NCBI GenBank assembly: GCA_900551925.1
Contig: URXR01000001.1
Coordinates: 1-41,432, forward strand
Source of the DNA: an uncultured Mycoplasmatota bacterium
Lineage (GTDB): Bacteria > Bacillota_I > Bacilli_A > RF39 > UBA660
Direction: 5' to 3'
DNA: 41,432 nucleotides
Part shown: in pieces, positions 2,858 to 29,366 of the stretch
Layout of the letters: each line of letters begins with the position of its first letter
How positions within the stretch are numbered: the stretch's first letter is position 1
Notes under the pieces: model-generated
Database searches by the model: none
What the model saw: the letters and a program-made list of their open reading frames with translations, nothing else
What the model was told of the DNA's origin: nothing
Made by a program: the position numbers and the translations under genes

Positions 2858-2988
2858 ATAAACTCCTCCAAACATGATAATTCTTTTATATTATAATAAA
2901 TTTATGAAAAATAGTAAATATCTAGATGAAAAATACTTAAACTTTATAAAAAAAATATAAACTTTAAATAGTCTATATTTTTAATTTA

Positions 2989-3627
2989 TTAATCAATTTT
3001 TCTAGTTTTTACAGAATTTTTTTCTTTAGTAAGAGGAGCTTTTAAAGAATAGATATACTTATCATATTTATAACTACATATTCCTCCTAGGTAATCAAAT
3101 TCTTCTTTAGCTTCCTCTTTTTCTTTTTCTTCTAAAATAAAGCCATCTTCTTCACATAAACCTCTTAATACTACTGGTGATACTAATAAATAATTTTGAG
3201 GAAGGGCTTCTGTTAAATAACCTTTAAAATATAATTTATTTTTTTTAGCTTCAAGAATATTTTTTGATTCAGTAAAAAATAAAACTACATCCTCTGGCAA
3301 AAACTCTTGATATTCCCTACTTATCGCAGGCATTTTTTTATAATTTATGGAAGTTGATGTAGCATCCATACTGCTTATTGTCATCATCATATGTTCTTTA
3401 TTTTCTAGATTATTATAATCATAATAAGTAAAAGTAGTTTCTGGATCTTTACTTTCATAAGTAATGCTATCTTTTAAATTGTTATATAAAAGTTCATAAA
3501 CAAATTTAGTTGATTCTACTAATTTAGTAGTAACTTCTTTTTTACTAGCTTTATATTTTCTTTCTTGTTTATTTGAATTTTTTAATTCTTCATTTAATTT
3601 CTTTAATTCTTCTAATTTTGTTTTCAT
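2989..3627 (-). CDS. Hypothetical protein (N-terminal coiled-coil)
   Basis: Intact ORF. The internal ATG at 3627 is preceded by AAGGAGGAG. The longer ORF-track start has no RBS. No family recognised. Confidence 0.55.
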   Translation of the reverse strand: MKTKLEELKKLNEELKNSNKQERKYKASKKEVTTKLVESTKFVYELLYNNLKDSITYESKDPETTFTYYDYNNLENKEHMMMTISSMDATSTSINYKKMPAISREYQEFLPEDVVLFFTESKNILEAKKNKLYFKGYLTEALPQNYLLVSPVVLRGLCEEDGFILEEKEKEEAKEEFDYLGGICSYKYDKYIYSLKAPLTKEKNSVKTRKID

Positions 3628-3732
3628 AAACTCCTCCTTGTGTTTAATTATTATAAACCTATTTATAATTTGTAGCAAGCTTAAATTGACTAAAAATAGT
3701 CTTATAGTTATAATATTTTTGGATGTGATTTA

Positions 3733-5199: not shown

Positions 5200-5210
5200 T
5201 CTAGATTTTT

Positions 5211-5606
5211 TTAAATGTCTTTTAGAATATTAATTATAAAACTAATTATTATTAGTACTATGATTAGATAATAATATTTAACGAAAAAGTTTAAATATTT
5301 TTCTAGATAGGTGCTTTTTTTGATTAAATCTATTAAAAATAAAACTAAAGCACTTAGAAAAAATAAAAAGATAGGGATTGTTAAAATATTATAGTTTATA
5401 GCGCCAATTATATCACCGTGGAAAAGACTTCTAAAACCTCTGGTTAGTCCACAGGCAGGACAAGGAATAGAAAAGATGGTTTTGAAAAGACATGATATAT
5501 CAAAAACAAATACTACTAGTATTCCGAATACAAGTAGTATTGTCATAATTAATAAAATTAATTTGTAGTTATTAGTCAACCAATCTATTTCCTTCAGCAT
5601 CAACAT
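5211..5606 (-). CDS. DUF2752-family membrane protein
   Basis: CPACGLTRG motif followed by multiple TM helices. Overlaps the upstream TM2 gene. Confidence 0.75.
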   Translation of the reverse strand: MLMLKEIDWLTNNYKLILLIMTILLVFGILVVFVFDISCLFKTIFSIPCPACGLTRGFRSLFHGDIIGAINYNILTIPIFLFFLSALVLFLIDLIKKSTYLEKYLNFFVKYYYLIIVLIIISFIINILKDI

Positions 5607-5934
5607 TGATAGTGCCAGTTAAAATTAAGATTCCTTCGATTAGACCCCAAATAGCTGAAGCAAATGATAGTATACCGCAAGATAAAACTGTTATTAATAG
5701 TTGCGCTACAGCTTTGCCGGTATAACCTAAATAAAAATTGTGAACTCCGAAACAGCCTAAGAAAATTCCTAAAAGACCAGCGGCTATTTTAGATTTAGGT
5801 TGGCCGCTTCCTACTATTTCGCCTTCTACTTTTTCGGTTTTAGTTTTTGTTTCATTTATTTTTTTGCCACAATTACCACAAAATTCAGCACCTTTTTCTA
5901 ACTCTTTACCACAATTTGAACAATATTTTGCCAT
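5572..5934 (-). CDS. Zinc-ribbon + TM2-domain membrane protein
   Basis: CSNCG...CGNCG zinc ribbon, then a TM2 signature (GIFLGCFGVHNFYLGYTGKAVAQLL). The start at MAKYC has GAGAGGAG upstream. The longer ORF-track start has no RBS. Confidence 0.8.
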   Translation of the reverse strand: MAKYCSNCGKELEKGAEFCGNCGKKINETKTKTEKVEGEIVGSGQPKSKIAAGLLGIFLGCFGVHNFYLGYTGKAVAQLLITVLSCGILSFASAIWGLIEGILILTGTINVDAEGNRLVD

Positions 5935-5987
5935 ATGATCACTCCTCTCATAAATAATAGCATAATTTAGAAGATTTAGCAATAATC

Positions 5988-7235
5988 CTATTTAATAATT
6001 TCTAGGATAATATCATTTTGTTTCTTTTTAAAAAGGGAAATATTAAAAGCATCATAAACGTCACCTTCAGCTACTTTATTGTTGCCATATAATTTAGCTA
6101 AAATATCGCCTTCTTTAATATCATCTCCTGGTTCTACCTTTAAAATTATTCCAGCATTATAGTCAATCTCATCATCTTTAGCTTTTCTTCCGGCGCCAAG
6201 GTTCATAGAAATTGTTCCTATTTTTCTGCTATCTATTTCATTTAAATAACCATATCTTTTAGCTAAAATATATTCACAATCAGGAAGATTTATTTCTAAA
6301 TTTCCTCCTTGATGATAAACAAATTCGCAAAATTTATCATAAGCTTTGCCATTTGTTATTGCATCTTCTACTTGAGCCAAAGCTTCTTCTTTAGAATAAC
6401 CTTTACTCATGGAAAGCATAAGAGCTGCCATTTCTTTACAAAGATAAGTTAAATTATTTTGTTTATTGTTTTTTAAAATATCTATTACTTCTAAGACTTC
6501 TATAGAGTTACCAATATTTGTTCCTAAAGGATTGTCCATTTCCGTTAGCATACAGACAACTTCACGATTATATTTTTTTCCTATTTTTATCATTAAATTA
6601 GCTAAGGCTCTAGCATCATTTATATTATCCACTAAAGCTCCTTTTCCTACTTTGACATCAAGTAAGATTTTACTCGCACCACTAGCTATTTTTTTACTCA
6701 TAATACTGATCGCTATTAGAGGTACTGATTTAGTTGTACCAGTTACATCTCTTAAAGCATAAACTTTTTTATCAAGAGGACATAAATTATCAGTTTGAGA
6801 GGAAATAACCATGCCAACATCTTCTAAACAGGTGTAAAATTCTTCTTTAGTTAAATCAGTTTTTACGCCAATACTATTTAATTTATCAATTGTTCCTCCG
6901 GTATATCCTAAGGCTTTACCACTCATTTTAGCTATTTTTACACCAAGACTTGCTAAAATAGGTAAAACTATTAAAGTAGTTTTATCTCCTACCCCTCCGG
7001 TTGAATGTTTATCAATAAAATCAGGATTTTCTTCTAAAACATCACCACTTTTAATAAAAATATCTACTAAAGAAAAAACTTCATTTTCTGATAGACCATA
7101 TTTACAAATAGTTTTTAGAACTTTAGTCATTTCTTCATCAGTTACTTTATTTTCTAGATAACCTTTAAATAAGTGTTCTAATTCTTCATAAGAAAGTTCA
7201 TTTTTTTCTTTTAGTTTTTCTATTAAAAAATTCAT
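5988..7235 (-). CDS. pdp: Pyrimidine-nucleoside (thymidine) phosphorylase
   Basis: HSTGGVGDKTTL signature, glycosyl-transferase family 3 core and C-terminal alpha/beta domain. Confidence 0.93.
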   Translation of the reverse strand: MNFLIEKLKEKNELSYEELEHLFKGYLENKVTDEEMTKVLKTICKYGLSENEVFSLVDIFIKSGDVLEENPDFIDKHSTGGVGDKTTLIVLPILASLGVKIAKMSGKALGYTGGTIDKLNSIGVKTDLTKEEFYTCLEDVGMVISSQTDNLCPLDKKVYALRDVTGTTKSVPLIAISIMSKKIASGASKILLDVKVGKGALVDNINDARALANLMIKIGKKYNREVVCMLTEMDNPLGTNIGNSIEVLEVIDILKNNKQNNLTYLCKEMAALMLSMSKGYSKEEALAQVEDAITNGKAYDKFCEFVYHQGGNLEINLPDCEYILAKRYGYLNEIDSRKIGTISMNLGAGRKAKDDEIDYNAGIILKVEPGDDIKEGDILAKLYGNNKVAEGDVYDAFNISLFKKKQNDIILEIIK

Positions 7236-7316
7236 ATTTTCACCTACTATCTAGTATATATATTACTATTATATACTGATATTTATTTTAAAACAATAAA
7301 AACTAAAATATTTTTG

Positions 7317-7356
7317 TAATCAAAAATAGCTAAATAATTGGCTTAGTTAGCTATTT
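7317..7356 (-). terminator. Rho-independent terminator of the glycine-rich protein gene
   Basis: 10-bp stem aaatagctaa/ttagctattt (7324-7333 / 7347-7356) overlaps the stop codon. A T-run follows on the minus strand. Confidence 0.7.
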
Positions 7357-9524
7357 AAGTTAAATTTTTCGATATCATAATTATAATTATGAAGTAGCTC
7401 TTCTTCTGTTAAAGCTCTATTGTAAACACGGATTGAATATATTTCTCCTTGAAAATAGTAAGCGCTTTCTGAACCTCCTATATATATTCTATTTTGAGTT
7501 ATTTTTGGACTAAAATCCGCTGTTAATTCTTTGTATAAAGTTGCATTACTATAAGCTTTTAAATTTCTTTCTTTCAACACACTACTTACTAATTGTACTT
7601 TATTTAATTCTTCATCCAATATAGGTTTAGTTATATGTGAGGAATTAGTACTATCTGATATAGTATACGTAAAACCTCCGTCACCTATATCTGTTGATAA
7701 ATATCTTTCAGTCCATCTTCCATGATTTACTGTATTAAATATTATTTGATAAGTTCCTGTATTTCTTTTGGGTGTTACTAATATTTCTAGTGTATATTCA
7801 TCTGTTATATTATAAGTAGCATTAGTTCTATATGCATAATCATTTACTCCATCAAAGGATAAGTAATTAGAGTACCAGGTTGACCCACTTACTGTTACAT
7901 TATTATTATTACCACTTAAATCTTTCCAAGTTGATGAAGAATAAGCATGAGTAGCTCCGGTGTTAGCATAACCATCAAGCCAAAGAATTAAATTATCTTG
8001 GATATAACCATTATAGGTATCGGTATAAGCATTTATTCTGTGTCCATTACTTGTTTCTATACTTGCTTCATTTATTACTTCAGTCCATGAATTATTATCG
8101 CTACTTACTGAAGTTACATTATCATAATAGCTTCTTTGATCCCAAAAATGATTCCACACTGCTACTTCATCTAAATCATAGGTATCTCCTAAATCTACTG
8201 TTATACATTGGTTATTAGTTTGTGCTGAGGCTTGAGCAAAATGATAATCATCATTGGTGATATCTCCATCTGTTATTCTAGAATATGGTCTAGAACTCAT
8301 TTCGGGAGTTGTTCCTGTTACTGTTTTTCCTTTAGCTATGTTTACCCCATCTTTTATGGCTTGTAATTCTATCCAAAGATTATTATCATTAGCACTGCTA
8401 TAATTAATACAATTTTTTATGTACCTTACATTGTTTAATTTTTCTGTTTTCTTCTTTGGTTTATCATAGACATAAGTTATTTTAGCATAACCATTTCCTT
8501 CATTTTGTCCTGCTATCATTTTTCCTCCAATAAAGTATTTACCTGAATAATGAAGTGTTTGATTGGTGTGTTTTATTGTGGTACTTTCTTCCACACTATT
8601 TACTCCAGCATAACCACTTATATATGAGGAACCGCCGCCTCCTGGAGTTGATCCATTAGCCCCACCAGAACCTCCACTTCCGCCATAGTATCCTGAGCCT
8701 CCACCTCCACCACTACCGGCTATAGCAGTTGCTGCATTTGCTCCTCCGGAGCCACCTTTTCCAAAGGATCCTGCTGTTCCATTCGATTGAGCTGTATTCC
8801 ATTTTATTGGCTCTTCTCCACCACTTATTTGAGTACCAGGATTTCCTAAAGTACTTTGATATGTTGAAGATATTGGATCTCCTCCATATAATGCGCCACC
8901 ATGACCTTGCACACTAGACATCTCCCCTGCTCCTCCGGCTCCTCCTGCTGCTACCATTATTCTTGATATTAATGATGACATATTATCCCAATTTCCACTT
9001 ACTAATCTTACATCGGTTGCTCCTCCTCCGGTTGTTCCACACACTCCGCTTTTTGCAGGCTTAGCTATCCCTCCTCCATTAAATTCATATCCTGTATTTC
9101 TACAATTAGTATTTGCATTTGTCCCTTTACCTCCAACATAGAAATATAATTTTTCTCCTTGTTCCAAATGTATATAGCCACTTGTTTTTGCTCCAAATGA
9201 TTCATTACTAGTATCTGCCGGGGTACCTCCGCCAGCCATTTCTATATAATAATATCCGTCTTTTGGTACTTCGTATTCTTGTGAAGTTCCTGTATAGTTA
9301 AAAACAGTGGTTTTATTTATTAAAGTATCTACTACTACCTCTATGGTTTTTTCACCTTTTATTGTATCTGTAAATAAGGCATATGATGTTTTTGTCATAC
9401 TTACTCCAATAAATATGGCAATTAACATTATTCCAACGCAAAATAAAGATAGAAATACTTTATTTATTTCTTTTATATCTTTATTTAATTGTTTATAAAG
9501 ATACCCCCCCCCAAAGTCTCTCAT
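7347..9524 (-). CDS. Secreted multidomain protein: SipW/TasA-type signal peptide + glycine-rich domain + F5/8 type C (discoidin) domain + LamG/concanavalin-like domain
   Basis: Signal region ends ...SMTKTSYALFTDT (camelysin/TasA-type). Gly-rich motifs (YFYVGGKG, GGGATDVRL, VAAGGAGGAG, GSGGGGGSGYYGGSGGSGG). Discoidin-like ITDGD...CITVDLG...WNHFW. C-terminal LamG-like LSFDGVNDYA...YFQGEIYSIRVYNRALTEEE. Confidence 0.85.
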   Translation of the reverse strand: MRDFGGGYLYKQLNKDIKEINKVFLSLFCVGIMLIAIFIGVSMTKTSYALFTDTIKGEKTIEVVVDTLINKTTVFNYTGTSQEYEVPKDGYYYIEMAGGGTPADTSNESFGAKTSGYIHLEQGEKLYFYVGGKGTNANTNCRNTGYEFNGGGIAKPAKSGVCGTTGGGATDVRLVSGNWDNMSSLISRIMVAAGGAGGAGEMSSVQGHGGALYGGDPISSTYQSTLGNPGTQISGGEEPIKWNTAQSNGTAGSFGKGGSGGANAATAIAGSGGGGGSGYYGGSGGSGGANGSTPGGGGSSYISGYAGVNSVEESTTIKHTNQTLHYSGKYFIGGKMIAGQNEGNGYAKITYVYDKPKKKTEKLNNVRYIKNCINYSSANDNNLWIELQAIKDGVNIAKGKTVTGTTPEMSSRPYSRITDGDITNDDYHFAQASAQTNNQCITVDLGDTYDLDEVAVWNHFWDQRSYYDNVTSVSSDNNSWTEVINEASIETSNGHRINAYTDTYNGYIQDNLILWLDGYANTGATHAYSSSTWKDLSGNNNNVTVSGSTWYSNYLSFDGVNDYAYRTNATYNITDEYTLEILVTPKRNTGTYQIIFNTVNHGRWTERYLSTDIGDGGFTYTISDSTNSSHITKPILDEELNKVQLVSSVLKERNLKAYSNATLYKELTADFSPKITQNRIYIGGSESAYYFQGEIYSIRVYNRALTEEELLHNYNYDIEKFNLNS
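9504..9512 (-). repeat. G9 homopolymeric tract (C9 on the plus strand) in codons 5-7 of the glycine-rich protein gene
   Basis: Read directly: ATG AGA GAC TTT GGG GGG GGG TAT. It is the only long G/C run I saw in this AT-rich window. Confidence 0.95.
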
Positions 9525-17976: not shown

Positions 17977-18594
17977 ATGGATCAAATTAAAATTGGAAAA
18001 TTTATAAGCTTAAAAAGAAAAGAAAAAAGGCTAACTCAACAAGAATTAGCGGAAAAATTAAATGTAACTGATAGAGCTATCTCGAAATGGGAAAATGGAA
18101 AATGCTTACCAGATATAGGAACAATTCCAGAATTATGCAAATGTCTTGGTTTTACTGTTAATGATTTATTTAGTGGTAAGATTGTTGATAGGAAAGATAA
18201 TGAAAAAAAGCTAGAAGAAAATTTACTGGAAATGGTTAGAGTAAAGGAAAAACAAGATAAAGAATTATTATCATTAGAAATATTTATTGGTATATTTGTT
18301 TCTGTTATAATGCTAGCTTGTGTTTTTACGGCATCTTTCATTAATATGCCTTATTGGTTAAGAATACTGCTAATTATTTTAGGTTTTATTCCATTTATCA
18401 TTGGTATTTCTTATGCAATAAGAATAGAACAAATCGCGGGTTATTATGAATGTGATAATTGCCATTATAAATACGTACCAACTTATAAAAGTGTGCTATT
18501 GGCTATGCATTCTGGTAGAACAAGATATATGAGATGTCCTAAATGTGAGAAAAAGACTTGGCATAGAAAAATAATAAGCAACTTTTACAAATAA
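17977..18594 (+). CDS. XRE-family HTH regulator with two TM helices and a C-terminal zinc ribbon
   Basis: HTH LTQQELAEKLNVTDRAISKWENGK, a hydrophobic segment, then CDNC...CPKC. Confidence 0.8.
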   Translation: MDQIKIGKFISLKRKEKRLTQQELAEKLNVTDRAISKWENGKCLPDIGTIPELCKCLGFTVNDLFSGKIVDRKDNEKKLEENLLEMVRVKEKQDKELLSLEIFIGIFVSVIMLACVFTASFINMPYWLRILLIILGFIPFIIGISYAIRIEQIAGYYECDNCHYKYVPTYKSVLLAMHSGRTRYMRCPKCEKKTWHRKIISNFYK

Positions 18595-18784
18595 ATTTTA
18601 AATGACTATATTTTAGATTATGTTATAATTCCAGGAATGGATAATTATGGCAGTTATAGAGTAAAGTGCAAATTAATAAGTAAAGCTTGGAAAAAGTTTA
18701 ATAAGAAAGTAACGAAGGATAAATTGTAAAATTTGCAATAGCAATAAAATTATGCTACTATATAACAATCGAAAGGAGTATGCA

Positions 18785-19771
18785 ATGAAACCAATAAGTA
18801 TTAGCAAAACATTAAATTTTGGAAAAGGTAGTATAGAAGTAAAATACAATGGTATAACTGCAAATGATAATGTTGACTTAGATAAAATAGAAACATTATT
18901 AGATAATTTTATAAATAATCATAGACACAATAATATGATAGAAAATGTCTCAATCATAAGAACAATATTAAAGGACTGTGAAGAAAAACTATTAGTTATT
19001 TTTTATCAGGATGAAAAAGGCTCAGAACTTGTTAAATATGATAATTTAAATTTAATATTATATGAAAAAAGTAAAAGAGAAGAAAATAATGATTATTATG
19101 ATAAATATAAGATTAAATATGAGCCAACTAGTGGTATAAAATTAGATTATAACAGTCATGAAACTGATATCACAAATTATCCAGATATTGAATTGATATC
19201 TAAAGAAATAACTGAAATAATAAAACAAATTTATTATTTAAAAAATACTAAAGCAGTTATGTTAGATATAAACGATAAAGAATTAATTGAAATATATAAA
19301 TTATTTTATAATGAAAATCCTAATTTTAGTAGCAAAGGTATAAATATAAAAGTTCAAGCAATGATGTCTATTTTAGCAAAGTTTGGTATTTCTCTATATG
19401 AGGATTATGGTTTTATTCTATTGGGAAAAGTAAAAATGCCTATATCATTAAATTTAGAACAAAGAGTCAATAAATTATATCCTTTAGGAGAAATAAGCAG
19501 TACTGAAGATAGTATAAAATTGGCTGATGAACCTAAAAAAATAATTAAGATTGTTGGAGAATGTATAAGAGAAGCAATTTCTAATGAACAAAGCCAAAAT
19601 GAAGCATTAATAACAATTAGTAAGGTTATTCACGCAGGAAGATATTGCCTTTCTTCTAATAGTGATATTAAGGAATTATCTGAATTTACTGAGCGTAATA
19701 CTGATGAGGTTGAATCAAGTATAAAACTAGTGAAACGTATTGAAAACAGAATTAATAAGCAAGTAAAATAA
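18785..19771 (+). CDS. Hypothetical protein
   Basis: Intact ORF. The start at MKPISI has AAAGGAG 7 nt upstream, whereas the ORF-track start 33 nt further upstream has none. No confident family assignment. Confidence 0.55.
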   Translation: MKPISISKTLNFGKGSIEVKYNGITANDNVDLDKIETLLDNFINNHRHNNMIENVSIIRTILKDCEEKLLVIFYQDEKGSELVKYDNLNLILYEKSKREENNDYYDKYKIKYEPTSGIKLDYNSHETDITNYPDIELISKEITEIIKQIYYLKNTKAVMLDINDKELIEIYKLFYNENPNFSSKGINIKVQAMMSILAKFGISLYEDYGFILLGKVKMPISLNLEQRVNKLYPLGEISSTEDSIKLADEPKKIIKIVGECIREAISNEQSQNEALITISKVIHAGRYCLSSNSDIKELSEFTERNTDEVESSIKLVKRIENRINKQVK

Positions 19772-20010: not shown

Positions 20011-20035
20011 TTTATCAAAACTCGAAAAGTTCGAG
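20011..20035 (-). terminator. Probable original terminator of tRNA-Gly, now displaced by the island
   Basis: Hairpin ctcgaa-aag-ttcgag (20021-20035) followed by TTTTGAT on the minus strand. It lies 11 nt downstream of the orphan copy of the tRNA 3' end. Confidence 0.55.
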
Positions 20036-20046
20036 CACATTTTATT

Positions 20047-20055
20047 ATGGAGCGA
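20047..20055. repeat. Left copy of the 9-bp direct repeat ATGGAGCGA (attL core; orphan copy of the tRNA-Gly 3' end)
   Basis: Identical to 29291-29299, which covers the last 8 nt (TCGCTCCA, minus strand) of the tRNA-Gly gene plus one base. Confidence 0.7.
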
Positions 20056-20143
20056 TTGATAAGAGGGTTTTAAACCTTTTATCAAAAAAATATCCCTCAC
20101 TCGTTAAATAGATTATAGCACATACATTGAAATAATACACTAA

Positions 20144-21688
20144 TTAATTATGAATTGATAGTGATTCTATAAAATTTGAAGTCACTTTTGCTAAATTTTC
20201 AAAATCATAATCTGAACTAATTGGTGGTATATGAACAAAGATCATTTTAATATCTGAAGAAATTTCCTGAATATATTTCATACCTTCATAGTATATATTA
20301 TTGCATAAATAGTTACCAGCATCATTAGATAACGAAAAAACTATCTTATTTGATGAAAGATATGATGTAAATTTTTTATAAGGAAATTTAGTTGTAATTT
20401 TATTATTATTTTTATTTCCAATCAATTCTATGTAAATATGATCACTATTAGGCTTTTGTCCAAATGCTATAATGTATTTGTAATTATTCTTATTTATTTT
20501 ATTTTTTAGTTCATTTACACTTGTGGAAAAACTATTCGTTAATTCCAGTTTATCAAGATTATTTGCACGAATTTGATGAAGTAGCATAGAAGATGAATTA
20601 TTTTTGCCTTTAAAGGAAGTTATTAAAATATTCGGATATATTCCTCTTAACTTGTTTTCTTTATTTTCAATTTTGATTTGTACTTTACTAGATTCAACTA
20701 TTATTTTATCTAAAAACTTATTCATAATTGAACATGTTGTCCATACATCAAGATTTGAATAAGTTAAAAAGAAATATGTAGAAATATGTACCAAAGATAT
20801 TGAAACATTTTGCATTGGTATAGATAATCCATAATTTGAGGGACCAACTAGTTTTAGCTTTTCTAAGTTTGGTATTACTCCTAATGATTCTTCATTGGCT
20901 TTATGATTACCATGTATATAGGCAGAAGATAGTTTATAATGTCCATATAACTTGTCCATATCAACTCTATCCTTTATTTCTTGAAAGGTAACTCTTTTTT
21001 TATTAAATATATCATTTGCCCAGCCATAATCTCCTTTAACATAGTCTTGTCCATATTTATCAATCATTAAATCATAGTTGTATTTTAAATTTTCAAAAGA
21101 TGCATCAGTATGATTTTGATGTCCTCTTTCTCTTGAAAATTTTTCATCTAAGTATTCCTGAATATGGTAATAATTTAAATATTTTTCACATAATTCTTGA
21201 TTATTTTCATCATATAGTAATTTACCAATTACTGATAATTCATAAAGTGTTCTCCAACGACTAAAAGCTCCATCAGGATAACCATTTTTAATTAATGTTA
21301 AACATTCTCTAGATATTAGTAATGCTCTAGCTTGAATATTTTGTAATGCATTAAACAATAAATTATTATTTTTATAAGCGTCTTCATAAAAAGTTTCAAC
21401 AAAAGAAGATGTACAACTAGTTATTAGTTCTATTAGTGCTTCAAAATAGTCAATTGGCTTTTTCCAAGTTTTATAAAGTCTATTAGTAAAATATCTATTT
21501 TCCTTTCTCACAGATTCTAGTTCTCGTCCTTTATCACTATCAAATCCCTTATAAAGAATATCTGAACCACTTTTAATAGAATGTTGCATTAGCTCAATAA
21601 GATAATCAGGATTTTTCTCAACTTTCTTTTCTATTATATCTTTATTATCTTCTATTAATTTCAATAACGCTTTATGATACTCATTCAT
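20144..21688 (-). CDS. Fusion protein: all-alpha DUF5677-like N-terminal region + pyroglutamyl-peptidase-I (C15)-like C-terminal domain
   Basis: The C-terminal ~165 aa aligns by eye to pyrrolidone-carboxyl peptidase: IIAFGQ...YIELIGN (Glu421), SNDAGNYLCNNIYYEGM (Cys462), MIFVHIPP (His486). The N-terminal region has ARALLISRECLTLIKNGYPDGAFSRWRTLYELSVIGKLL, which resembles DUF5677. RBS AGAGAGG. Starts 18 nt after the HNH gene. Confidence 0.7.
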   Translation of the reverse strand: MNEYHKALLKLIEDNKDIIEKKVEKNPDYLIELMQHSIKSGSDILYKGFDSDKGRELESVRKENRYFTNRLYKTWKKPIDYFEALIELITSCTSSFVETFYEDAYKNNNLLFNALQNIQARALLISRECLTLIKNGYPDGAFSRWRTLYELSVIGKLLYDENNQELCEKYLNYYHIQEYLDEKFSRERGHQNHTDASFENLKYNYDLMIDKYGQDYVKGDYGWANDIFNKKRVTFQEIKDRVDMDKLYGHYKLSSAYIHGNHKANEESLGVIPNLEKLKLVGPSNYGLSIPMQNVSISLVHISTYFFLTYSNLDVWTTCSIMNKFLDKIIVESSKVQIKIENKENKLRGIYPNILITSFKGKNNSSSMLLHQIRANNLDKLELTNSFSTSVNELKNKINKNNYKYIIAFGQKPNSDHIYIELIGNKNNNKITTKFPYKKFTSYLSSNKIVFSLSNDAGNYLCNNIYYEGMKYIQEISSDIKMIFVHIPPISSDYDFENLAKVTSNFIESLSIHN

Positions 21689-21706
21689 AAAATACCTCTC
21701 TTTTGT

Positions 21707-22618
21707 CTATAATTTTATTTTGTTAATTTCTTGAATCATCTTACTATCATAGGTTACTAGCTCGTTTTCATTTTTCAGATATTTTATATTTAGTCCTATA
21801 AAGTTGAATAATTTTTTTTCTGTTTCTCGAATATTTGTAACCGATACATTAAACTTTTTTGCAGTATCTTGAAGTGTATGTGTTTTTATTTGTTTGTTGT
21901 AACCAAATCGATATTTGATTTTTTCAATTTCTGTTTTGTTAAAATTATTATTTAAATATTGAGAAATAAAATTATCTAACTCAAAAGATAGTTTGTAAAC
22001 TATTTTTGCAGTTTCTTCTTGTTGTTTATTTAAATGCAATTTAGAGAAAATGTTTTTAAGAGTTAAATCATTTTCTTTTTCTTTTCTGATATTATTTATA
22101 ACAAAAATTGAAACAATAATATCATAAAGCATTTCCTGAGTTAAATCTATTAATCCGTTTGCTAATTCATTAAAGTCTATAACTAATAATTCAGATTCAA
22201 AATTATTCCCACGCTTTAAATTGCATTCAGGACATAATATCCTAATATTATTTTCATCAGAGCTTCCACCTTTTGACCAAGGAATTATATGATCAAAATG
22301 AATATCTTTATCCAGAACACTTTTAGAACATAATTGACATATATTATTATCTCTTCTACTTACTTTTAATTGAACTTCTCTTGGAATAATTCTTGAAATA
22401 TTTCTGAGCTCTTTTGTTTCAGTAAATGGTTCTGCTACTTTGAATACAGGACAAATGTGTCCAAAGATTCTACATATCTTTTCTTTATTATCTTCTTCTT
22501 GTGGCATATATTCAACCAAAGAACCATAAGGGCAATATTTAATTTCCCAGCAAGGTTTACATACTGCTTTTATTCTTCGATTCCAATCAATATTTTTAGC
22601 CCAATTTTTAACTTCCAT
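21707..22618 (-). CDS. HNH endonuclease with an N-terminal Cys/His cluster and a C-terminal sigma-70 region-4-like HTH
   Basis: CKPCWEIKYCPYG...CRIFGHICPVF cluster. HNH core CQLCSK...HFDHIIPWSKGGSSDENNIRILCPECNLKRGN. C-terminal IKYRFGYNKQIKTHTLQDTAKKFNVSVTNIRETEKKLF resembles sigma-70 region 4. Confidence 0.8.
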   Translation of the reverse strand: MEVKNWAKNIDWNRRIKAVCKPCWEIKYCPYGSLVEYMPQEEDNKEKICRIFGHICPVFKVAEPFTETKELRNISRIIPREVQLKVSRRDNNICQLCSKSVLDKDIHFDHIIPWSKGGSSDENNIRILCPECNLKRGNNFESELLVIDFNELANGLIDLTQEMLYDIIVSIFVINNIRKEKENDLTLKNIFSKLHLNKQQEETAKIVYKLSFELDNFISQYLNNNFNKTEIEKIKYRFGYNKQIKTHTLQDTAKKFNVSVTNIRETEKKLFNFIGLNIKYLKNENELVTYDSKMIQEINKIKL

Positions 22619-22734
22619 AAGTATACCACTTCCTTTTATAATTATATCATACTTTCTTTAGTAATCTAGATAGGTATATAGCAATTTTTCTTTAAATATA
22701 GTACAATTTTATTAGCAAGTATTTTGGAGGTATT

Positions 22735-23406
22735 ATGGAAAATTTATTGAAAGAATTAATTAATAGTGTAAATAATTTAAATAGTTTTTCTTGGAACGAT
22801 TTTATTAATATACTCGCCTTAATAGGATCGTGGATAACAATAGTTTTTCTTCTTATTGAAAGGCGTGAGCATAATAGACCTTATTTACAAATTACATTTG
22901 AATTGGTTCGCTCAAGTTTAGCCTGTATTGTATTAACAAATACAGGAAATGTCCCTTTAACAATTAGAAATCTAAAGTTTGATGAAGAATTTATAAAACA
23001 ACTGCCAGAAACGGAGCAAAAGTTATTAAGAAAGCAAAAAAATGATATTAGAATATTTCCTGGTAAAAAATGGATAATTTGTTTAGGCGTAACAACATCT
23101 GATATCTTAAATAATTTTGAAAAAAAGAATTTAGAGATTTCTTATTCTTATTCAAAAATCAATAAAAATAAAATATATCAAGATAGTAGTAATATTGATT
23201 TTGAACAATATTCTGGGTTTCTAGTATATGTTTCTGAAATTGATGAATTAAAGCAGGTAAATGATAAAATTGAAAAACATACAAAAGAAATAAACAAAGA
23301 AATTAAAAAGGTTAGTGCGTCACTGGTTCAATATCAAAATTTAGAAAGTAAGTTTATAAATAGTATCATAGAACAGCATGATAAAAGTGAAGAAGGAGAG
23401 ATTTAA
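22735..23406 (+). CDS. Hypothetical membrane-anchored protein (N-terminal TM helix, C-terminal coiled-coil)
   Basis: RBS TGGAGG. Hydrophobic segment ILALIGSWITIVFLLI. No recognised family. Confidence 0.55.
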   Translation: MENLLKELINSVNNLNSFSWNDFINILALIGSWITIVFLLIERREHNRPYLQITFELVRSSLACIVLTNTGNVPLTIRNLKFDEEFIKQLPETEQKLLRKQKNDIRIFPGKKWIICLGVTTSDILNNFEKKNLEISYSYSKINKNKIYQDSSNIDFEQYSGFLVYVSEIDELKQVNDKIEKHTKEINKEIKKVSASLVQYQNLESKFINSIIEQHDKSEEGEI

Positions 23407-23408
23407 AA

Positions 23409-23963
23409 ATGAAAAATAATTATTTATTAGTCCATGGAAGTTTTGGAAGTCCATTTTCTAATTGGATTCCGTATCTAAGAAAAGAAATAGAAAATAAAAA
23501 ATTAGAAGTTTACACTCCAGACTTTCCAACAGGAGTTGGTTATCAAAACTATGAAAATTGGTCTAGGTTGTTAAAGACTTATGTTGAAGCAAATATTATA
23601 AATGAAAATACAATTATATTTGCTCATTCAATAGCACCTATCTTTATTTGTAAATTTCTAGTTGAAAATAAGATTAAAGTTAAAAGACTAGTTTTTGTCT
23701 GTGGTTTTAATAATTATCTTGGAATAGATAAAGATTATGATGCAGTTAATGAAAGTATGTATTTTGATAATCTTACAGATGTTAAGAATTGTTGTGATGA
23801 CATTGTATGTTTTTACTCTGATAATGATCCTTATGTAAAATATGAAGCTGAAAAAGATTTTGCTGATGCTATAACTGAAAATCAGATTATGATTTCAGGC
23901 GGTGGTCATCTAAATTCTGAAAGTGGATATACAGAGTTTCCTGAATTATTAAAATATTTATAA
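23409..23963 (+). CDS. RBBP9/YdeN-family alpha/beta serine hydrolase
   Basis: LVHGSFGSPFSNW start, nucleophile elbow FAHSIAP, SDNDPYV (Asp), GGGHLN (His). Starts 2 nt after the upstream stop, with GAAGGAGAG as RBS. Confidence 0.75.
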   Translation: MKNNYLLVHGSFGSPFSNWIPYLRKEIENKKLEVYTPDFPTGVGYQNYENWSRLLKTYVEANIINENTIIFAHSIAPIFICKFLVENKIKVKRLVFVCGFNNYLGIDKDYDAVNESMYFDNLTDVKNCCDDIVCFYSDNDPYVKYEAEKDFADAITENQIMISGGGHLNSESGYTEFPELLKYL

Positions 23964-24040
23964 CTATCACACGCTAATTGATTATGTCAATTTGCAAGTG
24001 TGTTTCTAAATTGTCAGAATTTAGTTTCTAATGGCTACGA

Positions 24041-25276
24041 CTATTTAAAAATATCGTAGTCTTTTTCTATTGATTTAGTTTGATTATCTGTAATGATTTG
24101 GATGTTAGTATCTTTTGTTATATCTTTAATATCTATCAAATCATAAATTTTATTGTCATAACAATCTTTCAATATATCAATTATTTCTTCTTTTTGATTA
24201 TTGTTTTTTGATAACAATAATTCTCTAAAAAATGATTTGAGTTTTTGAAAAATCTCGTATATAAAATTTCTTAAATTACTATATAATTCTTTTAGATTTA
24301 TATAATCTTGTTGCGAGTAATTGTGGTCAATATCTAAATTTTTATACTTGGTTTCTAATTGACTATAGGTAGTAATATACTTAGATATATTATTATAAAG
24401 CGCTTCGTTTCTTATTTGCTTTTTTACATTCTCACTATACATATCAAAATAATCTAACAAGATATTATATTCTTCTCCATCAAGAATTACTTTAGCAGAA
24501 TTAAATTTTCTTTTAGCATTTGATAGTATTCTTTTAATCTCGTTTGATGCTTTTTGAAACTCTTTTTGTTCTCTAAAAGCAACTCTATCAACATACTTAG
24601 TAAAACTTTTGAATTGCTTTGTTTCGATATTTTTAATACCAGTATTCTTTTCACCACGTTCTAATTTAAAACCATTATTAATTAATCTTTCATAATATTT
24701 ATCTTGTAATTTGCTTAAATGTGTTTTGTCTTTAATATATACTCTTTTAGAAATAGAGTATATTTCTTTATTACATCTTTTATCAAACTTTTTAACAAGT
24801 GGAATTACTACTAAATGAATATGAGGTGTTTTTTCATCAAGGTGCAAAGTAGCATGAATAATTTGTTCTTTCTTATAACCTAAATCTTCTATGACAAAAT
24901 TTATACTTTCGGTTGCCCATTTCATCATATCTTCGTGATTCATATTTTTAAAGAACTCTGCATCGCTAGTAAAAATCATTTCATCAGCAACAACACCTTT
25001 AGAATTATTTACAAACTCATAAAATGATTTTTTTCTATCAGATCTGATTATTTTCATTCTATCATTAAATTCTTTTTGATAATCTTTTGTAATTTCATAA
25101 AATTTATTTATATACTTCTTATTACAACGAATTAGTTCAATATTATTTTTAGAATCTTCGATTCTAATATCTGGATTAGATTTATAATAATCTTTTGTTC
25201 GTTGATTATGAGAACCAATTTGTGATAAATCATTTAAAGTTTTAATACCTTTACTTCTAAATATAGCATAACTCAA
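24041..25276 (-). CDS. mob: Plasmid recombination / mobilization relaxase (Pre/MobV family)
   Basis: N-terminus MSYAIFRSKGIKT...GSHNQR and HxH-type motif HATLHLDEKTPHIHLVVIPL. TTG start with AAAGGAGAA upstream. Confidence 0.9.
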   Translation of the reverse strand: MSYAIFRSKGIKTLNDLSQIGSHNQRTKDYYKSNPDIRIEDSKNNIELIRCNKKYINKFYEITKDYQKEFNDRMKIIRSDRKKSFYEFVNNSKGVVADEMIFTSDAEFFKNMNHEDMMKWATESINFVIEDLGYKKEQIIHATLHLDEKTPHIHLVVIPLVKKFDKRCNKEIYSISKRVYIKDKTHLSKLQDKYYERLINNGFKLERGEKNTGIKNIETKQFKSFTKYVDRVAFREQKEFQKASNEIKRILSNAKRKFNSAKVILDGEEYNILLDYFDMYSENVKKQIRNEALYNNISKYITTYSQLETKYKNLDIDHNYSQQDYINLKELYSNLRNFIYEIFQKLKSFFRELLLSKNNNQKEEIIDILKDCYDNKIYDLIDIKDITKDTNIQIITDNQTKSIEKDYDIFK

Positions 25277-25473
25277 CTTTATTCTCCTTTCTTATTTTGT
25301 TTATTTGTTTCTAAAATTCTTTTAATTTGTTTTTGATATTTTTTATCATTCTTTAATATTTCTAATAGAAAATAATTAGTTACTTGTTCAGCATTTCTTT
25401 CAAAATAATCAAGAATTTGTGATAATACTACTTCAAAAAAGTAGTTAATAAAAATCTTCTCCTTCCTTTTTAG

Positions 25474-25500
25474 TCAATAAAAAAGAGCAATTTCTTGCTC
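25474..25500 (-). terminator. Rho-independent terminator after the kinase fusion gene
   Basis: Hairpin gagcaa-tttc-ttgctc (25485-25500), followed on the minus strand by TTTTTTATT. Confidence 0.65.
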
Positions 25501-25513
25501 AATTTATTAATAT

Positions 25514-26980
25514 TTACTTTATTTTATTATTATGTTCTTTAAGATAAACAGCATCAAATTGATTTACATATTGATTAAATTCTTTAAATGATAAACCAGT
25601 AGGTATATTAGGAATTTCAGTTAAGACTCTAATATCATTATGTTCTTCAAAACCACTTGTAATTTTTTTAATTGCATCATTTATACTGCCATATTTATGG
25701 ATTCCTCTTTTAGGTATATTAGAATGTTCAAAATGATACCAATTATCATTATAGTTAAACAATACAAAGCAGTGCATTCTTACTTCTTTATCAAAATTTT
25801 CTTCAGTTTCATAGCCTCTATGACAATAAAGTTTATTTTCTAAACCTATTTTATCAAAAAAGTATTTAATTAATTTTGCTTGTTCTATACAAGTGCCAAG
25901 ACCTGTTTCTAATATTTCTTCAATAGACATTGTTTTATAATTTTCTCTAAAACCTTTTAAATTATTTAAATGTTTTAAACCATATTTATCAACCCAACCA
26001 TATTCAATATTTATATTCATAAAATCCATTAGTTGAGCATCATTTTCTATATTTTCAAAATTTAACTCATCCTTTAGACTTACAATTTTAGCAGCTGATA
26101 TAACATCGTTTTTTAATTCTTTTGAATTTTGATAATTAATAAGCTGTCTTAAATAATAAATCATGTCATAAATAGCTAGTCTTTGTGGTAAAAATTCTAC
26201 ATTTACTAACTCTGGATAATATTTTTCAATATATAATTTGATATTAGTATAATCACTTGAATTTGTGTATTGTTCTGTTTCTTCACTTGCAAATTTCCAA
26301 GGTTTTCTAATCATTCTATATAGAATATCCAACTCAAAATCTTTTGGAGCATACATTGATCTTTCAAAATCTATAATTTTTATTTTTCCATCTTTATAAA
26401 ATATATTATCAAAATGTAAATCATTATGAACCAAAACTAATTCTTCTTTTTTTAAATATTTTGAAAATTTAGAAAAAGCATATTCTATTAATTTTTGCTC
26501 TTGTTCTGTAAAAACATTTAGTGTTTTTGCTTTAGAATATAGTTCCGTAAATTGATTTTGTAAATAATTATTCCAATCAAAATTTTGTCCTTTAGATTTG
26601 TTTGAATGAATACTTTTCATTGCCTCACATAGCTGTTTAATGATATTTTCTCTTTCATAATCAGAAAAAGTATGCCAAACATTATATAAAGAAACTCCAT
26701 CTATTTTTTCAATTATTTCATAACAATAAGCTACATCTTTTTTGCTAATATCAGAAATATATAGTTTTGGGAAAAGATTATTTCCTGTGTTTTCTTTATA
26801 GAAATTAATTTCGTTTTTAAAATTATTTTCATTATCCTCATTAGTACAAATTTTAATAATATATAAATCATTTACTACAAATATAGTATTAGTGAATCCA
26901 ACATTAATTTTTTTTATTTGAGGATTATCGCCAAATAATTGTGAATTTTGCTTTATAATAGTACTGATTGTTTCTTGCAT
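25514..26980 (-). CDS. Fusion protein: APH/choline-kinase-type phosphotransferase + C-terminal transglutaminase-like (papain-fold) domain
   Basis: Kinase catalytic loop LVHNDLHFDNIFY and IIDFERS. C-terminal GLGTCIEQAKLIKYFF (Cys), RMHCFVLFNY (His) and WYHFEHS (acidic) match the transglutaminase-like Cys-His-Asp/Glu pattern. Confidence 0.7.
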   Translation of the reverse strand: MQETISTIIKQNSQLFGDNPQIKKINVGFTNTIFVVNDLYIIKICTNEDNENNFKNEINFYKENTGNNLFPKLYISDISKKDVAYCYEIIEKIDGVSLYNVWHTFSDYERENIIKQLCEAMKSIHSNKSKGQNFDWNNYLQNQFTELYSKAKTLNVFTEQEQKLIEYAFSKFSKYLKKEELVLVHNDLHFDNIFYKDGKIKIIDFERSMYAPKDFELDILYRMIRKPWKFASEETEQYTNSSDYTNIKLYIEKYYPELVNVEFLPQRLAIYDMIYYLRQLINYQNSKELKNDVISAAKIVSLKDELNFENIENDAQLMDFMNINIEYGWVDKYGLKHLNNLKGFRENYKTMSIEEILETGLGTCIEQAKLIKYFFDKIGLENKLYCHRGYETEENFDKEVRMHCFVLFNYNDNWYHFEHSNIPKRGIHKYGSINDAIKKITSGFEEHNDIRVLTEIPNIPTGLSFKEFNQYVNQFDAVYLKEHNNKIK

Positions 26981-27014: not shown

Positions 27015-28748
27015 CTAAGTATTTATTTGAAGCAAAGTATACTTATCTTTATCGAATTTACTTTGCTTTTTATTAGGAATAATTTGTAGAACAGAATTGC
27101 TAGATAAATTATTAATGTCAAGTTTCTCTTTATTAATGGTTATAGAATTTATTTTATAATATTTACTTAGTGATGAAATATATTTATTAATATCTTCTTT
27201 TGTTTTTTCATTAGATAGTATAATATCTTTTTCATTAATATTAACTACCATATCAAAACAATCGTTTCTAAACATATAACCAATGTTTTCAATTTCTTTT
27301 TTATTGATATTAATCTTTTTGATGACGACTTCGTCTTTTACTTTTTCTATTTCAATGGAATCAATATATTTCTTAATTAATTCTGATTTTTGTTCTTTGC
27401 TAAGTTTGTTCCACAGTCCATTTTTTCTGACATAATAAGATTTATACTTTAATTTTTCTAATTGAAATAGATTAGTATAAAGTTTTAGTTCTTCTTTATT
27501 ATTAATATTTATGTTCGCTTGTTTTAAATTATTTAGTTTAATTTCAGTTTCTTCAATCTGCCTTTTAATACTAATTTCTTCATCTTTAAATTCATCTAAT
27601 TCAATAACACTATCAACATAGGCTTTTTTGATTCTTTTTAGCTTGTTATTTAATTCTTTTACTATTTTGTTATATCTTTCTATTTCAACAGTAATATCTT
27701 CGTTAAAAAATGATTTAAAGTTATTATCTATAAGCAAGTAATAATCTAACATATCATTTAAAAATAGCATTAAAGGTTCTTCAATTTTCTTTTCATTAAT
27801 TCTAGTATTACAACAATTACATCTATAGTAGATTTGAGTAGGTTTATTTTTAGGAGTAGTAGAAGAGCCACCCATGATTTTATTACATTTAGAACAAATT
27901 ATCTTTTGCATATATACATAGGTGTGTTTTCTAGTATAGTTTTTTAAATTCTTTTCCTTTTGTTTTTGGACTAGTTTAAAATCCTCTTTATTAATAATAG
28001 CAGGGCATACATCTTCAAGTAATATTGTTTCTTCATCTTTAATTCTTTTTCGGTGTTGATAATCTCCTGCATAAATATAATTAGAAAGCATTCTGTCAAT
28101 TGTTGTTGTTCGCCAATGTCTATTAAGAGCATTTTTATTATTCAATTCTTTTGTAATAGCACAAACTGATAAACCATTAAGATAGGATTTAAATATGTCC
28201 TTTACGACTTCACTTTCAACATCATCAATCACTAATTCTTTATTAACTTTTCTATATCCAATAGGTGCTTTACCACTAAAATGTCCTTTTTTCGCTGCAC
28301 CAGTTAAACCAAATTTTGTTCTTTCACTAGTTCTTTCAATTTCTAATTGGGCAAGTATTGTAGTCATTCTAATAAAGAATTTTCCTGTTGCAGTATCAGT
28401 ATTAATTTCTTCTGATACACTTTCTAAACTGGTATCTGTTTCTTCAATTAATTTACAAATGCTTTCTAAGTCTTGGATAGAACGAGTAAGCCTATCTAGT
28501 TTATAGACAATGATTTTATTTATTTTGCCACTTTTTAAATCGTTAATCATTTCTTGAAACTTAGGTCTATCCATACTTTTAGCAGAAACACCTTCTTCAC
28601 GATAAATCTTATAAATTGTGTAGCCTTTAAAGTCACATAGTTTTTTCATACTTTCTTCTTGCTCATCTAAACTATGTCCATACCTTGATTGATCTTCTGT
28701 CGAAACACGAGGATAAAGTCCAACCATAAAGTTCTTCTTTTCGTTCAT
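27015..28748 (-). CDS. Large serine recombinase (resolvase domain + recombinase domain + zinc ribbon + coiled-coil)
   Basis: YPRVSTEDQS catalytic serine motif, KLDRLTRS, Cys cluster CSKC...CNCC, long Lys/Glu-rich coiled-coil tail. The start at MNEKK (28748) has AAAGGAGAA upstream. The ORF-track TTG extension to 28817 is probably spurious. Confidence 0.92.
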   Translation of the reverse strand: MNEKKNFMVGLYPRVSTEDQSRYGHSLDEQEESMKKLCDFKGYTIYKIYREEGVSAKSMDRPKFQEMINDLKSGKINKIIVYKLDRLTRSIQDLESICKLIEETDTSLESVSEEINTDTATGKFFIRMTTILAQLEIERTSERTKFGLTGAAKKGHFSGKAPIGYRKVNKELVIDDVESEVVKDIFKSYLNGLSVCAITKELNNKNALNRHWRTTTIDRMLSNYIYAGDYQHRKRIKDEETILLEDVCPAIINKEDFKLVQKQKEKNLKNYTRKHTYVYMQKIICSKCNKIMGGSSTTPKNKPTQIYYRCNCCNTRINEKKIEEPLMLFLNDMLDYYLLIDNNFKSFFNEDITVEIERYNKIVKELNNKLKRIKKAYVDSVIELDEFKDEEISIKRQIEETEIKLNNLKQANININNKEELKLYTNLFQLEKLKYKSYYVRKNGLWNKLSKEQKSELIKKYIDSIEIEKVKDEVVIKKININKKEIENIGYMFRNDCFDMVVNINEKDIILSNEKTKEDINKYISSLSKYYKINSITINKEKLDINNLSSNSVLQIIPNKKQSKFDKDKYTLLQINT

Positions 28749-28900
28749 TTTTTCTTCTCCTTTCTTTTTGAACGACAAAAAAACAAGAGAGAATTTCCCT
28801 TGTGTAAAGAACTCCAAAATATTTAAAATATACGGTTATATATAATTTCCGTATATTACCATTTTATCACATTTTTATAGGAACGTAAATGGCAAAAGAG

Positions 28901-29290: not shown

Positions 29291-29299
29291 ATGGAGCGA
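29291..29299. repeat. Right copy of the 9-bp direct repeat ATGGAGCGA (attR core, inside the tRNA-Gly 3' end)
   Basis: Identical to 20047-20055. Confidence 0.7.
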
Positions 29300-29366
29300 A
29301 CGACGGGAATCGAACCCGCATCCTAGCCTTGGCAAGGCCATATTCTAACCATTAAACTACATTCGC
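29292..29366 (-). tRNA. tRNA-Gly (anticodon GCC), CCA encoded
   Basis: Minus strand reads GCGAATGTAGTTTAATGGTTAGAATATGGCCTTGCCAAGGCTAGGATGCGGGTTCGATTCCCGTCGTTCGCTCCA. It folds as a cloverleaf with a 7-bp acceptor stem, anticodon loop TTGCCAA, T-loop GGTTCGATTCC and discriminator U. Confidence 0.93.

Follow-up and report, generated by a model that had tools for sequence, protein, structure and literature searches.

The DNA analyzed here is a stretch of 41,432 nucleotides (hereafter, the window) from an uncultured Mycoplasmatota bacterium of the RF39 lineage (assembly GCA_900551925.1, contig URXR01000001.1, positions 1 to 41,432), a gut bacterium with a low GC content of ~25%. The subject of this report is a pair of adjacent minus-strand genes carried as cargo of a mobile element. 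Gene 1 (21707..22618) encodes a 303-aa protein with a Cys5His cluster, an HNH nuclease motif, and a helix-turn-helix (HTH) resembling sigma-70 region 4; gene 2 (20144..21688) encodes a 514-aa protein in which a helical DUF5677 domain is followed by a reduced, or mini, Peptidase_C15 domain. Both were delineated from the list of open reading frames (ORFs), with Pfam matches for the HNH motif of gene 1 and with Pfam and AlphaFold2 (AF2) for the domains of gene 2. The 18-nt spacer between them (21689..21706, minus strand; ACAAAAGAGAGGTATTTT) contains a GAGAGG Shine-Dalgarno sequence as ribosome-binding site, so the two-gene arrangement given in an earlier description of the window (the preliminary description) stands.

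A terminator-like hairpin (20021..20035) lies directly past gene 2, at the edge of a conserved block of DNA described below. Upstream of gene 1 is a divergent intergenic region (22619..22734), which from its position is presumed to be the promoter region of both genes; a promoter scan around the genes returned promoter-like matches at or below the number expected from shuffled sequence in this AT-rich DNA. Purifying selection acts on both genes, with ratios of nonsynonymous to synonymous substitution (dN/dS) of 0.12 to 0.16 for gene 1 and 0.15 to 0.31 for gene 2 in comparisons with close and distant homologs, and both are therefore real genes.

Domain structure of the two proteins

Residues 352 to 514 of gene 2 (20147..20635, minus strand) make up a cysteine hydrolase domain with the fold of pyrrolidone-carboxyl peptidase (PCP), recognized by Pfam, phmmer, and Foldseek. 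The Pfam Peptidase_C15 model matches residues 433 to 492 with E=7e-11 (42.9 bits against a cut-off of 22.7), and in a phmmer search of the PDB the residues E421, C462, and H486 align with the catalytic E81, C144, and H168 of Staphylococcus aureus PCP (3giu). The spacing from Cys to His is 24 in both proteins, and the codons of C462 (20303-20305) and H486 (20231-20233), both on the minus strand, lie where they had been placed from the sequence. When the AF2 model of gene 2 was compared with the PDB by Foldseek, the top 34 matches were all pyrrolidone-carboxyl peptidases, with target-normalized template modeling (TM) scores of 0.61 to 0.69; the best was 3lac (E=2e-8, TM 0.69), and after the PCPs the list continued with purine nucleoside phosphorylases and methylthioadenosine (MTA) nucleosidases at E ~3e-3. 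Among homologs that carry the domain, the Glu is kept in 46 of 46, the Cys in 45 of 46, and the His in 43 of 46. The proposal that the C-terminal ~165 residues align to C15 with all three catalytic positions kept is thus borne out by profile, structure, and homologs alike. The catalytic triad is intact, and from sequence and model the enzyme is predicted to be competent.

The domain is not that of a housekeeping enzyme, as the preliminary description had also held. It scores 54.7 bits against NF009676 (cut-off 199) and 33.2 bits against TIGR00504 (cut-off 201.75), below the NCBIfam levels that denote orthology to Pcp, and it is therefore a divergent C15 domain rather than a Pcp ortholog. It is also small, ~163 aa compared to ~210 aa for PCP. 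Part of the difference lies after the catalytic Glu, where 13 residues separate E421 from K434 compared to 35 from E81 to position 116 in PCP (~22 fewer), and part in the N-terminal FxxF or substrate loop, where the PCP motif ‘TGFxPFGG...NPS’ is shortened to ‘TSFKGKNNSS’. Because the substrate pocket is probably remodeled in this way, the substrate is unlikely to be a classical pyroglutamyl peptide. The Pfam match, the aligned triad, and the PCP fold are what one would expect if gene 2 were a pyroglutamyl peptidase I with an N-terminal extension, but the NCBIfam scores (55 and 33 bits against 199 and 202), the missing residues, the shortened loop, and the restriction of gene 2 to mobile elements, at varying locations, make that explanation scarcely credible.

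The remainder of gene 2, residues 1 to 344 (20657..21688, minus strand), is an all-alpha DUF5677 domain with a long linker helix, assigned by Pfam PF18928, phrog_27456, and AF2. PF18928 matches residues 120 to 269 with E=1.5e-19 (71.1 bits against a cut-off of 27.1), covering profile positions 9 to 159 of 166, and phrog_27456 matches the same part of the protein with E=2e-34. The DUF5677 part also matches spr_109 (28% identity), a hypothetical protein encoded by the Bacillus phage SPR, which is SPbeta-like. The AF2 model, built with 70 homologs, has a mean predicted local distance difference test (pLDDT) score of 92 and a predicted TM (pTM) score of 0.82, with residues 1 to 347 all-helical and residues 354 to 512 alpha/beta, in agreement with the helical, DUF5677-like N-terminal region of ~340 aa first read from the sequence. 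Several polar positions are conserved (R121, E128, D139, W145, R146, E150, YGWA221-224, and H259), and we infer that they form a candidate pocket. Neither the fold search of the PDB nor that of BFVD lists a structural neighbor of this part, in the PDB because PCP and purine nucleoside phosphorylase matches to the C-terminal domain fill the list; BFVD gave weak amidase-like matches to the C-terminal domain of gene 2 and nothing useful for DUF5677. A HEPN Rx6H motif (R186...H193) was considered and rejected, as these residues vary across the wider DUF5677 alignment, and kinship with DUF4238 was rejected at an hhalign probability of 0.1%. No relatives turned up when the alignment of the gene 2 family was used to scan the viral contigs of IMG/VR. 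In a 2025 RADS preprint (PMC12632615), DUF5677 is significantly enriched beside serine recombinases.

Gene 1 has three parts. At its N terminus (residues 20 to 56; 22451..22561, minus strand) is a C-x2-C-x5-C ... C-x4-H-x-C module that would bind a metal cluster, either Zn or iron-sulfur (Fe-S), and that has no match in Pfam or the PDB; two of its cysteines are followed by proline (‘CP’). The HNH beta-beta-alpha-Me motif with its two CxxC pairs follows at residues 94 to 138 (22205..22339, minus strand; Pfam PF01844, E=4e-14, 53 bits against a cut-off of 21.4). Across 79 homologs the N-terminal ligands C20, C23, C29, C49, H54, and C56 are invariant, as are C94, C97, D109, H110, N124, C129, C132, and N133 of the HNH motif, so the Cys/His cluster and the complete HNH motif noticed earlier are both firm features of the family. 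The first 145 residues are extremely conserved in the same homologs, and the C-terminal half varies except for an ‘LKYRWGF...E...L...G’ signature; an invariant catalytic half joined to a diversifying HTH tail is the pattern expected of a nuclease with an evolving targeting domain. The pLDDT values of the AlphaFold model are ~90 in the HNH core and in the helical domain at the C terminus, and below 50 in the Cys-rich N terminus.

The tail of gene 1 (about residues 225 to 280; 21779..21946, minus strand) is a sigma-70 region-4-like HTH located by TIGR02393, by profile comparison with the PDB, and by Foldseek. Its resemblance to sigma region 4 is real but weak. The gene 1 family profile matches region 4 of Clostridioides difficile SigA (7l7b_F, E=1.2e-3) and dozens of sigmaA/RpoD chains at the same place, and the tail superposes on domain 4 of sigmaA (4g6d_A) with a TM score of 0.76 and a root mean square deviation of 1.7 Å over 59 columns (Foldseek probability 1.0, E=0.12). 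Sequence thresholds for the family are not reached: PF04545 gives E=0.12 and 12.3 bits against 24.1, and TIGR02393 gives E=8e-5 and 22.3 bits against 354. Of the earlier assignment of a sigma-70 region-4 HTH, the resemblance therefore survives and the family membership does not. The C-x2-C-x5-C spacing is known from Fe-S proteins of the WhiB type, whose binding partner is sigma region 4; gene 1 combines a module of this spacing and a sigma-region-4-like domain in one polypeptide.

From its sequence, gene 1 likely encodes an autonomous nuclease, and it could be either a restriction-like defense gene or a selfish, free-standing homing-type gene that lodges between others. Matches in a phage genome collection were limited to the HNH region, at a coverage of at most 56%, and full-length relatives were absent, which argues mildly against an origin as a phage homing gene.

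Pairing of the two genes and the readings it bears on

The gene 2 fusion family comprises ~50 clusters at 41 to 95% identity, and six lineages were sampled for their neighbors. In the lineage of the window (at least 95% identity) the HNH gene is upstream, within the same 5.5-kb block. At 82% identity (P0002) the upstream gene is instead a DUF4238 gene at a 24-nt gap, in a similar recombinase and Mob_Pre element; at 75% (P0011) a 65-aa ORF is upstream, with a WYL regulator and Ham1 downstream; and at 71% (P0021) the gene directly follows a serine recombinase, with a Schlafen-like gene nearby. The two most distant lineages have no upstream partner: at 54% (P0035) HD_3, dCMP deaminase, and DUF1749 genes are downstream, and at 41% (P0052) the gene is solitary, with integrase fragments nearby. 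In the 54% lineage (L005-L009, 9547-11913) the DUF5677-C15 gene is the first of a closely packed series, followed by an HD_3 (5'-nucleotidase-like) gene, a dCMP/dCTP deaminase-like gene (PADLOC dCTPase, E=4e-7), a DUF1749 hydrolase gene, and a 134-aa ORF; neighbors of nucleotide metabolism recur elsewhere, as with Ham1 in L119 and NUDIX in L101.

The pair itself was seen in near-identical copies of one block, in which the HNH proteins are 93 to 100% identical and the gene 2 proteins 95 to 100% identical. The HNH gene is absent from the five other gene 2 lineages (41 to 82% identity), and gene 2 is absent from all sampled HNH lineages below 93% identity. The pairing is thus a feature of one recently spread block, and neither gene has a fixed partner. 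The preliminary description had treated the two genes as one system, and had itself offered failure to co-occur outside this genome as grounds for abandoning that view; in substance this is what we found, since co-occurrence outside near-identical copies of the block was not detected. A dedicated defense operon, in which DUF5677 would sense, the C15 domain cleave, and the HNH protein degrade DNA, would suit the operonic layout with its ribosome-binding site, the intact catalytic motifs, the carriage on a mobile element, and the lack of PADLOC system matches. However, with the pair confined to one nearly identical 5.5-kb block, the HNH gene in one of six gene 2 lineages, and gene 2 in no sampled HNH lineage below 93%, this two-gene model is largely refuted by the co-occurrence data, and we consider it very unlikely.

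Because there are gene 2 lineages without the HNH gene and HNH lineages without gene 2, we favor a reading in which the two are separate cargo genes that share a transcript at the far end of the Mob_Pre block of a serine-recombinase (Tn4451-like) mobilizable element, gene 2 being self-contained and gene 1 an autonomous nuclease; we would put its probability at roughly 55%. A role in conflict or defense would be plausible for each gene separately. Gene 2 would plausibly be a single-protein, abortive-infection (Abi)-like sensor-effector immune gene, with its PCP-fold cysteine hydrolase as the effector. In such a scheme the all-alpha DUF5677 domain would sense or position a target and control or gate the C-terminal hydrolase, which would act as the effector by hydrolyzing an amide bond in some molecule of the host or the invader, so that the invader is stopped. 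The sigma-region-4-like tail of gene 1 may direct the nuclease to DNA sites or to the vicinity of RNA polymerase, and gene 1 lodges beside many different defense genes. Gene 2 and its relatives consistently occupy mobile elements and regions that resemble defense islands. Neighbors of gene 2 relatives that are of defense type comprise DUF4238, Schlafen-like (SLFN_AlbA_2), Abi_alpha, YhcG nuclease, KAP NTPase, WYL, and OLD-TOPRIM genes; DUF4238 is a validated single-gene defense that protects Escherichia coli against T7 (10.1101/2021.01.21.427644).

Several observations weigh against this reading, some of them concerning gene 1 and others gene 2. For gene 1, the 18-nt coupling seen here leaves no room for a promoter, and in sister lineages the HNH gene is tightly coupled to two other defense-type genes (by a 22-nt overlap and across a 37-nt gap), so that the HNH protein could be a partner used repeatedly with different genes and no bystander. 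The varied neighbors across its family, in contrast, favor independence of the two genes. This family is far larger than that of gene 2, with >712 protein clusters and >514 metagenome loci ranging from gut Bacilli to Bacteroidales and sediments. In homologs at 64 to 67% identity the 22-nt overlap is with a gene for a 401-aa Hypoth_Ymh/HEPN protein that matches PADLOC PD-Lambda-3_B (1.5e-12), and in L026 a PD-T4-6-like Ser/Thr kinase gene is downstream of the HNH gene (E=6e-30). The 56% homolog (P0091) is followed at 200 nt by an ASCH gene and then by a nitroreductase-like gene and APH. Homologs at 36 to 47% identity have heterogeneous neighbors and many have no co-oriented neighbor at all; next to them are genes of defense type (AbiH, TIR, PIN, type I restriction-modification, Eco57I, Fic, and PDC-S01) as well as housekeeping genes (NrdD, FtsK, and polyprenyl synthase).

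The pattern near the window would fit modular cassettes, in which the HNH-sigma4 protein is a reusable regulator or executioner with interchangeable second genes (DUF5677-C15, HEPN/Ymh, or Ser/Thr kinase) and the pair is a functional unit. In the gut-Bacilli clade three unrelated defense-type genes stand closely behind the HNH gene (18-nt gap, 22-nt overlap, and 37-nt gap), and the sigma-region-4-like HTH could autoregulate the operon. Yet gene 2 lineages exist that have no HNH gene, PADLOC lists PD-T4-6-type kinases as single-gene systems, the P0091 lineage and many distant HNH homologs have no tight downstream gene, and the neighbors of distant homologs also include NrdD, FtsK, and polyprenyl synthase, which are housekeeping genes. 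We regard such cassettes as rather unlikely.

For gene 2, C462 or H486 has been lost in a few family members, and the single DUF5677 ORF tested in Enterococcus faecalis against six phages was outside the five of nine candidates found protective (PMC12632615). The wider family of the hydrolase domain points the same way. An exhaustive search found 430 relatives of the ~160-aa mini-C15 domain, most of them stand-alone proteins of 155 to 170 aa, and its fusions are to NUDIX (two independent cases), CN_hydrolase (nitrilase-type), GNAT, MFS transporter, and UPF0158 domains. Being mostly stand-alone or fused to NUDIX, CN_hydrolase, GNAT, or MFS domains, the mini-C15 family looks metabolic rather than immune. 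The elements that carry gene 2 also carry beta-lactamase-like, APH, GNAT, and Ser-hydrolase genes as cargo. Gene 2 could on these grounds be an accessory amidase for small molecules or peptides, with a part in detoxification, in antibiotic or bacteriocin inactivation, or in metabolite repair, its DUF5677 domain being a substrate-binding or regulatory one. The fusion or adjacency of mini-C15 to NUDIX, CN_hydrolase, and GNAT, its proximity to Ham1, HD_3, and dCMP deaminase genes, the other cargo of the elements, and the place of the tested DUF5677 ORF outside the protective candidates would all suit an amidase, and so would the one C15-only gene whose surroundings are chromosomal, behind a tsaE-tsaB-rimI operon. 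Against it, DUF5677 relatives adjoin OLD-family, Schlafen, DUF4238, Abi_alpha, and KAP genes, and one resides in an SPbeta-type prophage; we take the amidase explanation seriously as a rival, although we hold it to be improbable on balance, and continue to prefer two independent cargo genes with plausible roles in conflict.

The mini-PCP relatives form a widespread, unnamed family whose stand-alone members keep the triad; canonical 210-aa PCPs score lower. A C15-only gene at 58% identity occurs in related elements, with a NUDIX gene 16 nt downstream of it. We considered whether C15-only and DUF5677-only proteins might be adjacent halves of a split gene 2, which was rejected as the two are not adjacent in the loci examined; P0348 and P0350 were likewise rejected as genuine C15-only proteins, since each begins at a Met that lies inside the fusion, probably because the gene was called too short. 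A natural deletion is found in L011 (MGBC114289, a metagenome-assembled genome [MAG]; 5925-6488, the counterpart of 20147-21688 in the window), where 981 nt have been removed in frame, taking with them gene 2 residues 18 to 344 and so all of DUF5677, to give a 187-aa C15-only ORF with the HNH gene intact upstream and a KAP-NTPase gene downstream. In the shortened protein a brief, repeated ‘I-E-(D)-N-K’ stretch marks the junction of the first 17 residues with the C15 domain. Since the HNH gene and the C15 domain persist in L011 after the loss of DUF5677, the modules of gene 2 are separable. Between gene 2 and its P0002 relative (L001, 8001-9557) the DUF5677 parts differ with a synonymous divergence (dS) of 0.30 at 87% amino acid identity, compared to a dS of 1.02 at 72% identity for the C15 parts, suggesting recombination that swaps modules between family members.

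The mobile element

The two genes had been described as cargo of an integrative and mobilizable element (IME), and the surroundings agree with this. As in Tn4451-like IMEs, a large serine recombinase with Resolvase and Recombinase domains (27015..28817, minus strand) and a Mob_Pre relaxase (24041-25276) stand around cargo, and a tRNA-Gly (29292-29366) lies near the recombinase. Gene 2, gene 1, a 223-aa membrane protein, a Ser_hydrolase, and Mob_Pre make up a 5.46-kb conserved block (20041..25510), of which gene 2 is the terminal gene. By blastn the block is 98.8% identical to L021, a human-gut contig (1116-6573), and 87.7% identical to L010, a mouse-gut Bacilli MAG (2098-7574); its flanks are unrelated among the window, L010, and L021, which gives three different contexts. 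The same recombinase and Mob_Pre backbone is found in L001-L004. A search for attachment-site repeats between the two presumed element ends gave no match of 11 nt or more, and a search for plasmid DNA nearly identical to the region found nothing.

Within the block, and divergent from gene 1, are the gene for the 223-aa protein, which has an N-terminal membrane helix and no family match, and, after 2 nt, that for the Ser_hydrolase (PF06821; together 22735-23963, plus strand). This pair is conserved with the block, and its first gene is cut to 99 aa in L011. The window, L010, and L021 differ in the cargo that lies between Mob_Pre and the recombinase. In the window this position is taken by a gene for a 488-aa APH/protein-kinase-like protein (25514-26980, minus strand) with a weak match to phrog_15084 and no match in PADLOC, which is absent from the otherwise matching elements of L010 and L021. 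Just outside the block is a 339-aa ORF (18752-19771, plus strand) with no match in Pfam, PADLOC, or PHROGs. Beyond it is the gene for a 205-aa protein (17977-18594, plus strand) that may be a regulator anchored in the membrane: an Xre-type HTH at its N terminus, which matches the HTH part of the PADLOC RmrA and HTH_VI models, is combined with two predicted membrane helices and, at the C terminus, a CxxC...CxxC ribbon.

Novelty and comparison with known systems

The combination of domains had been thought to match no named defense system, and against PADLOC-DB v2.0.0 this holds: gene 2 has no system match, its one hit being PD-T4-2_B at E=0.013, and gene 1 matches generic HNH or REase_II models and no named system. 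NCBI names the proteins ‘DUF5677 domain-containing protein’ (gene 2) and ‘HNH endonuclease’ (gene 1). The literature searched contained no link of Peptidase_C15 or pyroglutamyl peptidase to phage defense, and no clan-CF cysteine peptidase fold as a defense effector. Because there is no PADLOC model, the NCBI names are generic, and the searched literature makes no link between C15 and defense, the domain architecture of gene 2 and the family of gene 1 are uncharacterized; single-gene cargo of serine-recombinase elements and defense islands is already known.

If gene 2 is indeed immune, it would bring a new effector chemistry to bacterial defense, that of a pyroglutamyl-peptidase-fold cysteine hydrolase, and it would for the first time open a way to the function of DUF5677, a domain whose association with serine recombinases is so far a statistical one. 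It is an attractive and testable candidate for a PCP-fold effector. A bolder reading, which we offer tentatively and think doubtful as a whole, has two parts. The DUF5677-mini-PCP fusion, carried by mobile elements of gut Bacillota, would be an immune protein of a new, single-gene kind, the first whose effector is a clan-CF (C15) cysteine hydrolase; its DUF5677 domain would sense the trigger or be autoinhibitory, and the L011 form would be constitutively active or repurposed. The HNH family would be a new class of metal-cluster nuclease (possibly Fe-S), its sigma-region-4-like domain guiding it to RNA polymerase or to DNA that resembles promoters. Apart from any such role, this large and unnamed family is a worthwhile biochemical target in itself, given its sharp conservation and a metal-cluster module that AlphaFold models poorly. 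The locus also illustrates that tight operonic spacing on the small elements of gut Bacilli is not evidence of a system, as cargo is shuffled singly behind shared promoters.

Compared to PCP (MEROPS C15, PF01470; 3lac, 1aug, and 3giu), gene 2 shares the alpha/beta fold, the triad, and the Cys-to-His spacing of 24, and it retains the GQ and (F/Y)-x-C-N motifs. It differs in having a domain of ~163 rather than ~210 aa, with a ~22-residue deletion after the Glu and a shortened N-terminal substrate loop, in scoring far below the NCBIfam ortholog cut-offs, in its fusion to a 344-aa DUF5677 domain, and in being encoded on a mobile element. With the DUF5677 orphans (PMC12632615; phrog_27456/spr_109) it has in common the domain and the habitat beside large serine recombinases, but typical members are single-domain proteins of ~350 aa, and gene 2 adds a C-terminal hydrolase.

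The relatives of gene 2 are, like the single-protein Abi and defense genes Rst_DUF4238, PD-T4-6 kinase, and AbiH, solitary, variable in position, and found beside validated systems, and gene 2 likewise joins a helical N-terminal domain to an enzymatic C-terminal one, although it has no homology to these genes (no PADLOC match; hhalign against DUF4238, 0.1%). Gene 1, for its part, shares the beta-beta-alpha-Me core and the Zn-binding CxxC...CxxC with HNH nucleases that carry DNA-binding domains, namely EcoKMcrA (6ghc), the Gme HNH protein (4h9d), and the free-standing HNH homing endonucleases of phages, and like them it has a C-terminal HTH that varies between homologs, as targeting domains do. 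It is set apart from all of these by an invariant N-terminal Cys5His module that is unique to it and by a tail that is like sigma-70 region 4 rather than of the NUMOD or SRA type.

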